A stretch of 49,639 nt of DNA, taken from IMG/VR virus record IMGVR_UViG_3300031087_000527, positions 209,384 to 259,022 of that record. The stretch is one strand, 5' to 3'. A program made the position numbers and the translations under genes. This stretch comes from a virus (Duplodnaviria; Heunggongvirae; Uroviricota; Caudoviricetes). Shown piece after piece: positions 38,825 through 44,372 of the stretch (positions within the stretch are counted from its first letter, which is position 1; each line of letters starts with the position of its first letter). The notes beneath the pieces were generated by a model. It worked only from the letters and a program-made list of their open reading frames with translations. It had not been told where the DNA came from and did not search any database.

Positions 38825-38923
38825 AGGGAGTTAGCTTATGGGTAAAGCGCGTTTAATATGTCTCGAAATTCTAGATAAGAGGCTGTAACTTAAACGAGAA
38901 TCCGGTTCGAGTCCGGCGCACCG
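38825..38923 (+). ncRNA. tRNA-like RNA A, anticodon arm extended (~35-nt insert), weak acceptor stem
   Basis: TA-GCTT-ATGGGTA-AAGC D arm; CGTTTA/TAAACG stem enclosing GTCTC/GAGGC; CCGG-TTCGAGT-CCGG T arm. Confidence 0.6.
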
Positions 38924-38995
38924 TTTGTGTAGCCTAACTGGTAAGGCACTATTAGCAATAGGTATGTGGAGTTCGATTCTCTGCCGCAAGCACCA
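38923..38995 (+). ncRNA. tRNA-like RNA B, shortened anticodon arm, encoded CCA
   Basis: GTTTGTG/CGCAAGC acceptor; GCCT/AGGC D arm; CTA-TTAGCAA-TAG; GTGGAG-TTCGATT-CTCTGC; ACCA. Confidence 0.7.
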
Positions 38996-39009
38996 AAGAG
39001 AGGTGAATA

Positions 39010-39417
39010 ATGTTAAAAGTGATTGTTAATGTATGCCCTTCGGCAAAGCTGAAAGAGATGTCGGGCGAGTCCGGCGTAATTTTGACGGATGCTGAGTTGT
39101 ATAAAATGCTGAATGGTGAAGAGAAGTTCGGACCATTTATGTATGACCAGAGCAATATCGAAGGTTTGGTCGATGCAGTAGTTGAAGCCAGTAAGGTAAA
39201 GGATATTGTGATCCATACTTTTAATTCGGGACTGCTTAACTGGTTTGAAGATAATGTGGCTATTTCTTCATTTTATGTGTTAAATGAGCAGGGCGAACCA
39301 GAGTTGCTTTTCAGCTATAAGCACATGTTAGAAAAGCTTGATTGTATGGGGCCTGGCGAAGCAGTGAGCGATACAGATTTCGAGAGATTCTCAGAAATCT
39401 ACGGTGAAAAAGCTTAA
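39010..39417 (+). CDS. Hypothetical protein resembling the C-terminal part of AAA/ABC ATPases
   Basis: LVDAVVEAS...VIHTFNSGLLNWF...GPGE; no Walker A; GAGGTG RBS. Confidence 0.65.
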   Translation: MLKVIVNVCPSAKLKEMSGESGVILTDAELYKMLNGEEKFGPFMYDQSNIEGLVDAVVEASKVKDIVIHTFNSGLLNWFEDNVAISSFYVLNEQGEPELLFSYKHMLEKLDCMGPGEAVSDTDFERFSEIYGEKA

Positions 39418-39425
39418 AAAAGTTG

Positions 39426-39461
39426 TTGCACTTCAGAAAGTCATTTGATAGAATGACTTTC
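39426..39461 (+). promoter_or_regulatory. Promoter with overlapping palindromic operator upstream of suppressor tRNA
   Basis: TTGCAC-17-TAGAAT; GAAAGTCATT-TGATAG-AATGACTTTC (39436-39461) covers the -10 box. Confidence 0.7.
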
Positions 39462-39482
39462 GTAGTGAGAAGGAAATAAAGT

Positions 39483-39556
39483 GTCTTTGTAGCTTAGCGG
39501 TAAAGCAGGAGTCTCTAAAACTCTGGACGCGGGTTCGAATCCCGCCATTGACACCA
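39483..39556 (+). tRNA. Amber suppressor tRNA (anticodon CUA)
   Basis: GTCTTTG/CATTGAC acceptor (two U-U); GCTT/AAGC; GGAGT-CT CTA AA-ACTCT; GCGGG-TTCGAAT-CCCGC; ACCA. Confidence 0.8.
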
Positions 39557-39558
39557 AC

Positions 39559-39707
39559 GGGAAAAATATAGACACGCATTCTCTTAGTTAGCGCTGACGA
39601 AAGAATGTGGAAGGTAGGCATCCTTTGGTCTATAAGTGAGGAACAGTATTGAGTCGCTCTCAGCTTCTGTTTTTCATCAGTGAGGTTCGATTCCTCTATT
39701 CCTGCCA
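39559..39707 (+). ncRNA. Giant cloverleaf RNA C (D arm replaced by 3-way junction, long anticodon arm, CCA)
   Basis: GGGAAAA/TATTCCT; TATAGAC/GTCTATA; CGCATTCT/AGAATGTG; GAGGAACAG/CTGTTTTTC; GAGG-TTCGATT-CCTC; GCCA. Confidence 0.6.
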
Positions 39708-39710
39708 AGT

Positions 39711-39832
39711 CGATAGTGTATAGGCGTTTAGTAAAGCAGGTGCTTCAACTATACAGGTGAACTGCCCGGTCAGCTTGCTTCTGACTGAATAAGGGATGGC
39801 GGTTATCAGAGTTCGAGTCTCTCTATAGGCCA
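39711..39832 (+). ncRNA. Giant cloverleaf RNA D (extended D and anticodon arms, CCA)
   Basis: CGATAG/CTATAG; TGTATAG/CTATACA; AACTGCC/GGCGGTT; GTCAG/CTGAC; AGAG-TTCGAGT-CTCT; GCCA. Confidence 0.55.
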
Positions 39833-39836
39833 TATT

Positions 39837-39921
39837 GCTCTGGTGGTGGAATCGGTAGACGCGGTGGACTCAAAATCCATTGCCGCAAGGCGTGAGGGTT
39901 CAAGTCCCTCCTGGAGCACCA
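39837..39921 (+). tRNA. tRNA-Leu (CAA)
   Basis: Canonical type II cloverleaf; GTGGA-CT CAA AA-TCCAT; variable arm GCC-GCAA-GGC; A73; CCA. Confidence 0.95.
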
Positions 39922-41798: not shown

Positions 41799-41927
41799 AT
41801 GGCTTTAAAACCCGGTCCTAAAAGAATAGCTGAATCAACTGGAAAACCAGACCAGCGTCTGCGTGATAATAAAAAAACACCTGGAAATAATCCAGACGTT
41901 AAACCTAGCAAATCTTCAGGGAAGTGA
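41799..41927 (+). CDS. Small basic Pro/Lys-rich protein (42 aa, not in ORF track)
   Basis: GGAGG RBS; MALKPGPKRIAESTGKPDQRLRDNK...; own promoter and terminator. Confidence 0.7.
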   Translation: MALKPGPKRIAESTGKPDQRLRDNKKTPGNNPDVKPSKSSGK

Positions 41928-42025
41928 TGTCTGAATTTTTTAATTTGATAAGCCCTTCGGGGCTTTTTTTGTATTAGAGAACAGATAACCAATATTATTT
42001 TGCTTAAAATGGAGTAAGTGTATAG

Positions 42026-42514
42026 ATGACTAAAGCGAAAATGGGTAGAGCTAAAAAAAGTGACTATGTCATAATAACTGATGAATTATTAAAAGAGGCT
42101 GTAGAAAATAATATAAGTCTAGCTGGGGTTTTAAAATATTTAAACAAGAAACAAGCAGGAGGGACGCAAGCACATTATAAAAACAGAATAAACAGATTAG
42201 GGTTGAACTGTGATCATTTTTTAGGCAAAGGTCATAATAAAAATAAAACATGGGCTATAAGAAAAGAACCTAAAGATATATTGATAAAAAGAGAAGGTTA
42301 TATGAGACAAAGATCACATCTCTTAAGGAGGGCTTTGATAGAATCTGGAATCCCCTATGAATGTTCAGACTGTGGTTGTTGTTCAGAGTGGAGAGGTAGC
42401 CCCCTTGTTTTAGATGTTGATCATATTAATGAGGATTGGCTAGATGATAGAATTGAGAATTTGAGATTCCTTTGCCCCAATTGTCATAGTCAATATAGTA
42501 GAAATTTAAAATAA
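42026..42514 (+). CDS. HNH endonuclease within the tRNA cluster
   Basis: CSDCG...LDVDHINEDWLDDRIENLRFLCPNCHSQ. Confidence 0.88.
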   Translation: MTKAKMGRAKKSDYVIITDELLKEAVENNISLAGVLKYLNKKQAGGTQAHYKNRINRLGLNCDHFLGKGHNKNKTWAIRKEPKDILIKREGYMRQRSHLLRRALIESGIPYECSDCGCCSEWRGSPLVLDVDHINEDWLDDRIENLRFLCPNCHSQYSRNLK

Positions 42515-42517
42515 AGC

Positions 42518-42546
42518 TTGTTTTTCAAAAAGAGTTTATGTATAAT
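42518..42546 (+). promoter_or_regulatory. Promoter for RNA L / tRNA-Leu(UAG)
   Basis: TTGTTT-17-TATAAT. Confidence 0.65.
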
Positions 42547-42553
42547 CTTTTTA

Positions 42554-42619
42554 CTGGTTAGGGAATGACGGAGTGTTTCGCGAAGCACTGAGGTTCGAAT
42601 CCTCACATGAACTAACTGG
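42554..42619 (+). ncRNA. Small T-arm-bearing RNA L
   Basis: CTGGTTAG/CTAACTGG outer stem; GTGTTT-CGCG-AAGCAC; TGAGG-TTCGAAT-CCTCA. Confidence 0.5.
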
Positions 42620-42676
42620 AGGAAGGAGTGTATTCTAATATACTCTGAGAAGAGATAGAACAGCTTCTTCCGCAAT

Positions 42677-42761
42677 GCTCCGGTGGTGAAATTGGTAACC
42701 ACGCCAGATTTAGGTTCTGGTGCCGCAAGGTTTGTCGGTTCGAGTCCGACCCGGAGCACCA
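42677..42761 (+). tRNA. tRNA-Leu (UAG)
   Basis: GCTCCGG/CCGGAGC; CCAGA-TT TAG GT-TCTGG; variable arm; GTCGG-TTCGAGT-CCGAC; ACCA. Confidence 0.95.
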
Positions 42762-43269
42762 AACTCATTAGGATAACAGGTTAGACTGAGGCTGTTATTT
42801 TAAATCATCTTGTCTGGTATGAGTTCCAAGGGCAAGCGGGATAAGTTCGCTGAAGACGATATGGAATGCGAATGCTGACTGGCAGTTTCAACCAGAGGGT
42901 ATTTAACAGCAAACTAAAAATCTGAACAAACCTGATCATTGTTCAAATAAATATTTGATTTTACCTATTATCGATGTTATGCTTTATTTATTCACATAGA
43001 TAGTGAATAGATATTTTCATATGTTAATGGGAAATATATAACAACAAGAAATCTTTGTTAAATGAAATGGTTTGGATTGATTAATTAGGTTGTTTTCGTT
43101 AAAAAGCGTTATAATGGCCTTGATTTAACTATTGCTAATAGTGGTTTTAGTTATAAGCCCCAAATCATATTTAAAAGTGCTAACGAGTTTTTCTTCTTTG
43201 TGAAGGAAAATAGTGATAGCAGGAAAAAAGAGGTTGATGTTAGTTCACAACCTGCTTTATACGTTCATG

Positions 43270-44215
43270 ATCAGGTTTGATCACATTTAGAAGAACGGCG
43301 ACGACCTTCGCTATTAACTTAGTTATATGGTCGCACTGAATGGTAGAATAAAGGTTCAAATCCTTTACAGAGCACAAGGCGAGAGAATGTAGCTTTGACC
43401 TAAACCACCATCGCTATAAACCATAGTCCTTATATATAGTGGCCCATCTCTCAAGGCCGGGACAGAAAAAAGCTATCAGGGGAGAAGCAGGGTGGTTCCT
43501 GGCCCCGAAGTTGTTGAAGATGCTCAGATTGTTACAATTTGTGGAATGATCTGAGTGGAACAACAAAACAAGTGAATCCATAGTTAATATGGGATGGTTG
43601 AGCGGAAACTGCTCCGTTGTCTTGGGATGTTTAATCCAACATTACAAGACCGCAAAAATGAGCTTGCAACTCCTGAGCGACTCTATCGGTGGCAATCAAG
43701 TAGGAGATAAACACCTACCACTTGAAGTTGAAAAGCAAGTTATCGGTTTGTTGCTAAAAAACACCGATAAAGATATTTACAGGCATTTTACTGTCATCGT
43801 GAAAGAAATTAGCGAAGTATCTGGCAGTCAGAAAGCGAAGAAAAGACTGCAGAGAAACAAAAGGCCAAGCCTACGCGGTTTCTGCGACGAGTCGTAAAGT
43901 GAATATCTTAAGTTGAATAGAATAGCGAGCTGTCAGTTTGTTGCTTATAAACACTGACTTGTGCTGTAAGAGAAAACTGCAATCTTACGGCAGACAGCGA
44001 AGCAGAATAGAGGAAGTCGGCAGAGAAAGCTGCCATCGTAAAGGATGATCCATTACTGGTATCTGGCGGTAATAAGCGAATAAAAAACCGCAGAGAAAAT
44101 ATGGACACCACGACGAGTCGCAAGACTTCCTCTTTTAATCTTAAAATGTTTGTGTAGCTCCTACCAATGGGAGCATTAGTCTGAGACAAGCGATACCGGG
44201 AATGACTATAACTCG
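43270..44215 (+). ncRNA. Candidate very large structured RNA N (~900 nt; may be more than one RNA)
   Basis: Embedded T arm TAAAGG-TTCAAAT-CCTTTA; many hairpins and GNRA loops; long-range helices 43883-43895/44110-44122 and 44009-44018/44124-44133. Confidence 0.55.
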
Positions 44216-44222
44216 GACCACT

Positions 44223-44372
44223 GGTTGTTTGGATAGCCGGGAGCTATGGCAAACGATAAGAAGGTGACAAGCACCAGATATAAAGAGATATGCATGTCTT
44301 TTTATGTTTGATACAGTAGCGGCTTTCTGTGTAGATTGTTATGTGCAGGTTCGAATCCTGCAGCAACCACCA
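44223..44372 (+). ncRNA. Nested cloverleaf RNA H (tRNA frame, three-arm insert in place of anticodon loop, CCA)
   Basis: GGTTGTT/AGCAACC; ATAGC/GCTAT; AACGAT/ATTGTT; inner GGTG/CACC, 15-bp helix and ATACAG/CTGTGT; GCAGG-TTCGAAT-CCTGC; ACCA. Confidence 0.7.

Follow-up and report, generated by a model that had tools for sequence, protein, structure and literature searches.

The window analysed here is a stretch of 49,639 nucleotides (nt) at positions 209,384 to 259,022 of the IMG/VR record IMGVR_UViG_3300031087_000527, and forms the terminal 49.6 kb of this 259-kb record of an uncultured giant phage (completeness 91%, CheckV). In the open reading frame (ORF) listing of the window, positions 38825–44372 contain almost no credible ORFs. 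This interval, referred to below as the island, carries on its + strand three canonical transfer RNAs (tRNAs) and nine other elements that keep the T arm of a tRNA and have no canonical anticodon arm. Comparison with related loci shows that these elements exist, are under selection and fold as described, and it suggests that the nine are working RNA genes and not decayed tRNAs, E11 alone being still explicable as debris. The elements are as follows (bp, base pairs):

38825–38922, + strand: E1, tRNA-like RNA at the predicted transcription start
38923–38995, + strand: E2, complete cloverleaf with 7-bp acceptor, D arm with GG, T arm 38967–38983 and ACCA
39483–39556, + strand: E3, canonical tRNA with anticodon CUA (amber suppressor type); ARAGORN, and Rfam at 65 bits
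39557–39708, + strand: E4, acceptor stem 39558–39563 with 39699–39704, T arm 39681–39697 and GCCA tail
39709–39833, + strand: E5, four-way junction of an acceptor-like stem, two elongated arms and T arm 39807–39823, with GGCCA tail
39837–39921, + strand: E6, canonical tRNA-Leu (CAA); ARAGORN and Rfam
40721–40867, + strand: E7, nested double tRNA
40871–40966, + strand: E8, 7-bp acceptor, small D hairpin with GG in its loop, T arm 40939–40955 and ACCA
42554–42619, + strand: E9, three-way junction at the 5′ end of the predicted tRNA-Leu(UAG) transcript, straight after a TATAAT promoter
42677–42761, + strand: E10, canonical tRNA-Leu (UAG); ARAGORN and Rfam
43333–43379, + strand: E11, minihelix-like, with 6-bp acceptor-like stem, AATGGTAGAATA linker (D-loop remnant), T arm 43350–43366 and tail ACAA
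44223–44372, + strand: E12, perfect 7-bp acceptor, extended D-like hairpin, T arm 44345–44361 and ACCA

Across the whole window ARAGORN calls only E3 (CUA), E6 (Leu-CAA) and E10 (Leu-UAG), the same three RNAs to which the original prediction, made from the letters of the sequence, had assigned a normal anticodon loop. Rfam adds one weak match at the gathering score (38923–38992, 31.1 bits), which corresponds to E2. The word GTTCRANTC occurs 14 times in the window vs 3.6 ± 1.9 times in shuffled versions, none of which reached 14, and 12 of the 14 words lie within 38905–44357, every one on the + strand. These 12 one-strand T arms in 5.5 kb compare with about 0.2 expected on one strand of the region, a figure derived from the shuffle mean of 3.6 per window over both strands. 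A scan for a 5-bp stem with TTCRANN recovered the identical 12 T arms, and a stem-aware T-arm scan of the whole genome found 39 on the + strand and 4 on the − strand, clustered at tRNA islands. Beside the three decoders there are nine non-canonical T-arm elements on the + strand (E1, E2, E4, E5, E7, E8, E9, E11, and E12), in agreement with the at least nine that had been claimed.

A TTCRANY loop closes the T arm of all nine, and each conserves a GG, either where the D loop would lie or in an equivalent linker. An encoded NCCA follows a pairing acceptor strand in six (E2, E4, E5, E7, E8, and E12), and the earlier count of at least seven elements with a CCA or a D-loop GG holds. A 7-bp acceptor with discriminator and 3′ CCA is found in E2, E7 (with two internal mismatches), E8, and E12; E1, E9, and E11 do not have this combination, and for E4 and E5 the register is ambiguous. 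The canonical anticodon arm, a 5-bp stem with a 7-nt loop, is absent from 9/9 and is replaced by a 3-nt loop, no arm at all, or a branched insert. None of the nine is called by ARAGORN, and the Rfam gathering score is reached by E2 alone, through a tRNA alignment in which nine loop positions are collapsed to five; standard finders do miss such elements, as had been anticipated. Taken singly, the elements have unremarkable thermodynamic z-scores, which is the usual finding for tRNAs, and no paralogues of any element were found elsewhere in the genome.

Related loci were drawn from public assemblies by means of two flanking or internal proteins. They comprise a close clade (L009, L010, L014, and L025), four distant lineages (L011; L016; L017/L019; L020–L022) and one short contig (L015). 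Neither L023 nor L024, which are more remote metallophosphatase homologues, has an island nearby. In three flanking genes, third codon positions of the window are 36–45% identical to those of the L011, L016, L017, and L020 lineages, which amounts to saturation, and the flanking proteins are 23–67% identical to those of the distant lineages. Over 2 kb the island is ~82% identical to these same lineages, with T arms at 76–100%, 3′ acceptor strands and tails at 75–97%, and bodies at 74–80%. Within the close clade, E1 is 82–98% identical and E2 96–99% (L009, L010, L014, and L025), vs 47–62% for third positions of the adjacent ORF. Because the abnormal architectures are kept across lineages saturated at third positions, they must have been inherited and not independently eroded. 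The comparison of homologous loci that the original prediction had proposed as a check therefore finds no uniform neutral decay, T arms, 3′ ends and bodies all being kept.

Compensatory base changes support the folds. In E7, with 37 pairs in 8 helices, 99.6% of alignment cells are paired and 9/37 pairs are double-changed, vs 0–2 in slid controls. For E8 (28 pairs) the corresponding values are 97.3%, 9/28 and 1–3, and for E4 (45 pairs) 95.9%, 10/45 and 0–2; for each of the three elements, 0/500 shuffles reached the covariation score. E5 has 40 pairs, of which 4 are compensatory and about none broken, and E9 has 23 pairs, 3 compensatory and 0 broken, in 10 sequences from all lineages. The 7-bp stem of E1 shows 2–3 compensatory changes in five close relatives. 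Compensatory changes are spread over acceptor, T, D-position and cargo helices. The claim that the RNAs are not products of random decay is upheld by these data: T arms, acceptor ends and aberrant bodies all lie far above the neutral baseline and carry compensatory changes.

The relatives also contain extra or different T-arm elements (L014:11915–12040, L017:131–500, L016:4494–4520, and L011:11053 and 13027). Second E8-like and E9-like copies are among them, and the repertoire has been gained and lost between lineages.

The elements fall into distinct structural types. In E2 the anticodon arm (38949–38961) is a 5-bp stem with a 3-nt loop, CTATT-AGC-AATAG. E1 has a D arm (stem GCTT/AAGC, loop ATGGGTA), a 7-bp stem at the anticodon position (38850–38856 with 38890–38896), and a T arm at 38901–38917 with the T loop TTCGAGT; inside the 7-bp stem lies a 5-bp hairpin whose 14-nt loop, GAAATTCTAGATAA (38865–38878), is invariant. 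As a separate observation, the E1 loop GAAAUUCUAGAUAA holds the palindrome UCUAGA, with which loop-loop dimerisation is conceivable, the chance of a 6-nt palindrome in such a loop being ~0.14. A joint fold of E1 and E2 from RNAalifold was disregarded, as it joined one T arm to the other and no covariation backed this pairing. In E4 a three-hairpin body of ~115 nt stands in place of the D and anticodon arms, and E5 has a branched body like that of E4, in the range of 100–115 nt; E5 is 83% identical in the L020 lineage.

E7 combines two tRNA-like folds. Its outer frame consists of an acceptor stem, a D arm, an anticodon stem of 5–6 bp (40746–40750 with 40831–40835), a T arm (40841–40857), and ACCA. 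At the site of the anticodon loop, a closing helix (40755–40760 with 40819–24) opens a four-way junction whose arms are, in order, a T-like arm (40765–40781), a loop-closed 7-bp acceptor-like helix (40782–40801), U-G, and a D-like arm (40804–40818). The inner module is a circularly permuted cloverleaf. E8 carries an elongated, two-tier arm with an 8–9-nt loop at the anticodon position, and its CCA has become CAA in L019–L022. Both E7 and E8 are placed between two large non-coding RNAs (ncRNAs).

E9 has a long closing stem, a 6–7-bp hairpin with a 4–5-nt loop and a canonical T arm (42589–42605); it has no D arm, and its linker ACGG is invariant. E12 shares the outer frame of E7 and bears a large insert at the anticodon position that includes a 16-bp hairpin. 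Its acceptor, T arm and ACCA are invariant in seven sequences, and the insert is ~50 nt shorter in the L017 and L020 lineages. A reading of E12 as a second permuted cloverleaf was rejected, since support is limited to the long hairpin and the outer frame and ~50 nt are missing in two lineages. E11 lacks an anticodon arm, scores 17.8 bits against the Rfam tRNA model, and occurs in L010, L015, and L025 and, from the T arm onward only, in L011; it is the weakest of the nine elements.

The closest counterparts that we found are in phage T4, where rnaC and rnaD are stable RNAs of the tRNA cluster without an assigned role (PMC3014915). In the T4 region that we inspected, rnaC (species 1 RNA) and rnaD (species 2 RNA) lie directly behind the tRNAs on the tRNA strand, and the cluster contains the homing endonuclease gene segB, as the island contains an HNH gene. 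The T arm of T4 rnaC reads CCGGG-TTCGAAT-CCCGG; an acceptor-like stem closes the RNA, and the D and anticodon arms give way to a branched body. Like E4 and E5, it combines a T arm and a closing stem with the lack of an anticodon arm, and like them it is encoded on the tRNA strand of a phage tRNA cluster. By blastn-short, the match to rnaC and rnaD is limited to the T-loop word (11–15 nt). T4 has two such RNAs, whereas the island has nine together with kilobases of other structured RNA, and the nested double cloverleaf (E7), the triloop tRNA (E2), and encoded CCA ends are features of the island that rnaC lacks.

For E7 the nearest parallel is YrlA (RF02553), a bacterial and phage Y RNA that has a tRNA-like module. 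The inner module has the YrlA order of T arm, loop-closed acceptor-like stem and D arm on a helix, an order backed by covariation. With an acceptor stem of 7 bp, the YrlA of M. smegmatis serves as an RNase P substrate and gains CCA (PMC4201824), and the inner acceptor-like stem of E7 has this same length. Unlike YrlA, the E7 module is mounted on the anticodon stem of a second tRNA and not on a Ro-binding helix. The motif GNCGAAN0-1G is not conserved in E7, where the stem reads CGAAG, GGAAG or GAAGG depending on the relative, and Rfam gives no YrlA match even at E ≤ 10. TROVE/Rsr, RtcB and the CCA-adding enzyme family were not found in the 259-kb phage genome, while control genomes for TROVE did match; Rnl1 had no match in the phage genome, nor in any control genome. 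The nested cloverleaf form was found in neither Rfam nor the papers searched.

Three predicted promoters precede the arrays:

38790–38818, + strand: promoter P1 (TTGTAC, 17 nt, TATAGT), upstream of E1, E2 and the protein gene ORF135
39426–39454, + strand: promoter P2 (TTGCAC, 17 nt, TAGAAT), for E3–E6
42518–42546, + strand: promoter P6 (TTGTTT, 17 nt, TATAAT), for E9, E10 and the structured RNA N8

Across relatives the promoter hexamers are kept while the spacers are free to vary; the P1 hexamers are invariant, with a variable spacer in L014, and those of P2 are conserved in L009, L010, and L014. The start of E1 at 38825 agrees with the start predicted from P1. Only 1–4 nt separate the NCCA tail from the next element at E3/E4, E4/E5, E5/E6, and E7/E8.

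We regard it as probable that the elements are natural tRNA scaffolds, in which host tRNA maturation excises and stabilises RNAs whose cargo or second elbow acts in trans. Transcription, tRNA-type processing, stability, and action in trans are all steps that we infer from the sequence. In this scheme, sigma-70-type promoters would drive head-to-tail arrays in which the three decoders stand among nine RNAs derived from tRNAs and several larger structured ones. Each of the nine retains the tRNA half recognised by maturation enzymes (T arm, elbow-closing GG, and, in six, acceptor and NCCA), and with its anticodon arm shortened, lost or swapped for a conserved folded domain it cannot decode. Host RNase P would cleave every 5′ end, exonucleases and the CCA machinery would complete the 3′ ends, and the tRNA top would shield the RNA against decay, leaving the cargo domain or the bare tRNA body to work in trans on a partner. 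An engineered system offers a model, as E. coli processes and protects RNAs in which a cargo replaces the anticodon stem-loop of a tRNA scaffold (PMC3753655). The scaffold of Ponchon and Dardel likewise retains acceptor stem, T arm and D arm and takes up a folded cargo at the anticodon site; it differs in being man-made with a user-picked cargo, whereas the domains of the island are natural and conserved. We favour a natural scaffold because the part read in maturation is kept, the anticodon site is the insertion site, and the elements stand head-to-tail with real tRNAs, 1–4 nt apart, behind conserved promoters.

Several observations weigh against this interpretation. E2 and E11 carry no cargo, and a purely carrier role leaves both unexplained. 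E1 lacks acceptor pairing, E9 and E11 have no encoded CCA, and for E4 and E5 an ambiguous register leaves the exact 5′ and 3′ termini uncertain. E1, E2, and E11 are found in close relatives only, and the covariation comes from ~5 independent lineages. No partner protein could be identified, ORF135 being without a fold match.

Phage tRNAs counter tRNA-cleaving defences such as PrrC, PARIS, and retron Eco7, and the RNAs of the island could instead be decoys or sponges, that is, tRNA-shaped bodies that titrate an elbow- or acceptor-reading factor (a host defence or a tRNA-handling enzyme) and spare phage translation. We consider this unlikely, though it would accommodate E2 and E11 as bare, cargo-free tRNA bodies, the T loop and GG kept in every element, the two elbows of E7, and a turnover of the repertoire like that of arms-race genes (additional copies of the E8 and E9 kind occur in L014, L017, and L016). 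The substrate site of anticodon nucleases (PrrC, RloC, VapC, colicin-type) is missing from these RNAs; because they have no anticodon loop they would be poor baits for such enzymes, and sponging would be limited to elbow- or acceptor-reading factors. An elbow decoy would not need the strong conservation of the bodies (74–80%) or their covariation, and the RNA-repair partners Rsr and RtcB are among the families not found in the phage genome. The original prediction had proposed a repertoire of elbow and acceptor mimics serving either as decoys or as tRNA-processed carriers for cargo domains. That the elements are non-decoding and selected stands, and the carrier half suits their anatomy best; the decoy half is unsupported. 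A doubtful variant of the decoy idea is an RNA-only counter-measure, in which diversified anticodon-less bodies, including ‘two-headed’ RNAs with two tRNA elbows, would sequester or misdirect host proteins that bind the elbow or acceptor. Their targets might be RNase P, immune effectors directed at tRNAs, or enzymes of tRNA charging and modification, and the large structured RNAs might cooperate.

Non-decoding tRNA-like folds recruit RNase P or RNase Z to set RNA ends in mascRNA and the TMERs of MHV68. By analogy, the elements could be cis-acting ‘t-elements’, folds that merely guide RNase P and 3′ trimming to free neighbouring tRNAs, ncRNAs, and the ORF135 messenger RNA (mRNA). The positions of E1 and E2 in the 5′ leader of ORF135, of E9 ahead of tRNA-Leu(UAG), and of E7 and E8 between large ncRNAs would fit such a role, for which the t-elements of plant mitochondria (PMC1920247) offer a precedent. 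We nevertheless judge it improbable: an acceptor and T minihelix would suffice for processing, whereas the 70–115-nt bodies of E4, E5, E7, and E8 are conserved and covary, and two or three neighbouring marks would be redundant. Moreover, t-elements, mascRNA and TMERs are eukaryotic or organellar and usually occur once per transcript, whereas the island is an array of distinct, individually conserved genes.

It is less probable still that some elements are aminoacyl carriers, charged by an acceptor-reading host synthetase and donating the amino acid off the ribosome or through entry like that of transfer-messenger RNA (tmRNA). Six elements do have a pairing acceptor stem, discriminator and encoded CCA, but no G3:U70 or other acceptor identity set is conserved, and the G:U of E4 becomes G:C in L009. 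Neither ARAGORN nor Rfam identifies a tmRNA, the sole tmRNA-type match in Rfam (16 bits) being at chance level, and no transferase gene lies nearby.

Removal of the inserts to give ordinary decoders is barely credible. Deleting 40755–40824 from E7 would leave a 7-nt loop, GTA plus AGTA, but this residual loop would have U at position 37, the loop of E2 is too small and not too large, and the inserts (34–80 nt) are far under the size of a group I intron. An intron-containing tRNA of the group I type would have a self-splicing intron of ≥200 nt in its anticodon loop, and Rfam found no intron family at E ≤ 10. To our knowledge, bulge-helix-bulge splicing is absent from bacteria, which makes a decoder by insert removal unlikely. 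Equally hard to credit is that the elements are decaying pseudo-tRNAs and homing-endonuclease debris, for although an HNH gene is inserted in the island and E11 is fragment-like and patchily distributed, the aberrant architectures persist, with compensatory changes, across synonymously saturated lineages, which contradicts decay for 8/9 elements and leaves it possible for E11.

Non-decoding stable RNAs of phage tRNA clusters, T4 rnaC and rnaD, have been known since the 1970s with no role assigned. The island is best filed as an expanded, diversified form of such ‘stable RNAs of phage tRNA clusters’. This clade offers nine distinct, individually conserved genes in clear structural classes, and with them comparative leverage (covariation, gain and loss between lineages, defined ends) on a question that T4 alone left unsolved. 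Processing of the RNAs by the tRNA pathway would make them natural cases of the tRNA-scaffold principle, and binding to host factors would make them a new kind of RNA-based host manipulation. Such loci are under-reported by tRNA finders, and ‘gene deserts’ near tRNAs in jumbo phages should therefore be read as RNA islands.

The remaining features of the island are the following:

39010–39417, + strand: ORF135, within the island the sole conserved protein gene; it follows E1 and E2 and is predicted to be co-transcribed with them
39922–40720, + strand: N1–N4, conserved structured non-coding RNA with no T arms
40967–41681, + strand: N5–N7, conserved structured non-coding RNA, with an intrinsic terminator (41643–41681) at its end
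41682–42514, + strand: lineage-specific insertion with a 42-amino-acid (aa) ORF (41799–41927) that has its own terminator and an HNH endonuclease gene (42026–42514; Pfam HNH)
42762–42900, + strand: N8, conserved structured RNA directly 3′ of tRNA-Leu(UAG)
43380–44222, + strand: N9–N11, conserved non-coding stretch with internally repeated modules

About 3 kb of the interval is not tRNA-like yet equally conserved, with abundant compensatory pairs in N2–N8 and no Rfam family. The description of the interval as dominated by tRNA mimics is correct in that the nine elements are real, and has to be qualified in that these ~3 kb are other conserved structured RNA without T arms. The ORF-free stretches 39922–40720, 40967–41640, and 42762–42900 look like large structured ncRNAs. 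The N1–N4 stretch is 76–100% identical to L016 and L020 and contains internal promoter-like sites at 40008–40037 and 40276–40304. By RNAalifold, compensatory pairs number 14/49 in N2, 14/58 in N3, 19/57 in N5 (40967–41210), 13/65 in N6, 8/43 in N7, and 7/32 in N8 (10 sequences). Within N9–N11, a nominal 102-aa ORF (43589–43897) is non-coding, as it has a 1-nt indel in L010, where no gene is called. A repeat lies within 43730–44100, where 43730–43767 matches 43920–43957 and the GCAGAGAAA box occurs three times; stem changes between the repeat copies look compensatory (TCGGT/ACCGA vs TCAGT/ACTGA). A search for antisense targets found 9-mers complementary to conserved loops in the phage genome at a frequency of about chance. 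The insertion at 41682–42514 is absent from L010, L011, L017, and L020, and a second lineage-private insertion at 42900–43295 is a ~400-nt AT-rich segment.

Homologues of ORF135 are 52–88% identical. The protein has no Pfam or PHROG match, and its AlphaFold 2 (AF2) model (predicted local distance difference test, pLDDT, 80) gave no significant fold match. Assignment as a P-loop kinase was considered and rejected, the fold matches being weak and non-significant and a P-loop motif being absent. A protein identical to ORF135 is also present on a record from an 866-kb contig. Among the decoders, tRNA-Leu(UAG) is the only one found in every lineage, and the acceptor stem of the tRNA with anticodon CUA has two conserved mismatches. 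TAG is a rare stop in the genome (11/188 long ORFs); TAG recoding was considered, and there was no clear sign of it, as reading through TAG merges genes no more than chance.

Searches for kin outside the assembled loci returned little. No DNA-level relative of the window was found among cultured phages, nor a cultured-phage relative of its 638-aa protein, the one protein tried. In annotated phage, plasmid and E. coli collections, matches were limited to the HNH gene and the genes for tRNA-Leu. IMG/VR gave no relatives, whether searched with two protein anchors or with three RNA patterns, exact or degenerate, and a scan of one JGI metagenome yielded a single 1.4-kb contig. The IMG/VR label of the 259-kb record is provirus. 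Upstream of the island, on the − strand (36067–38231), four to six paralogous genes of 119–130 aa form an array, and further upstream, beyond this array, are two or three cREC_REC-domain genes; the positions of both are kept in relatives. The 259-kb genome contains 25 Rfam-grade tRNAs in several + strand clusters. Its other tRNA clusters likewise contain T arms without an Rfam tRNA call, at 142195, 142531, 148428, 148601, 148941, and 162208; one of them belongs to a 215-nt element (162018–162232) with perfect 7-bp acceptor pairing.

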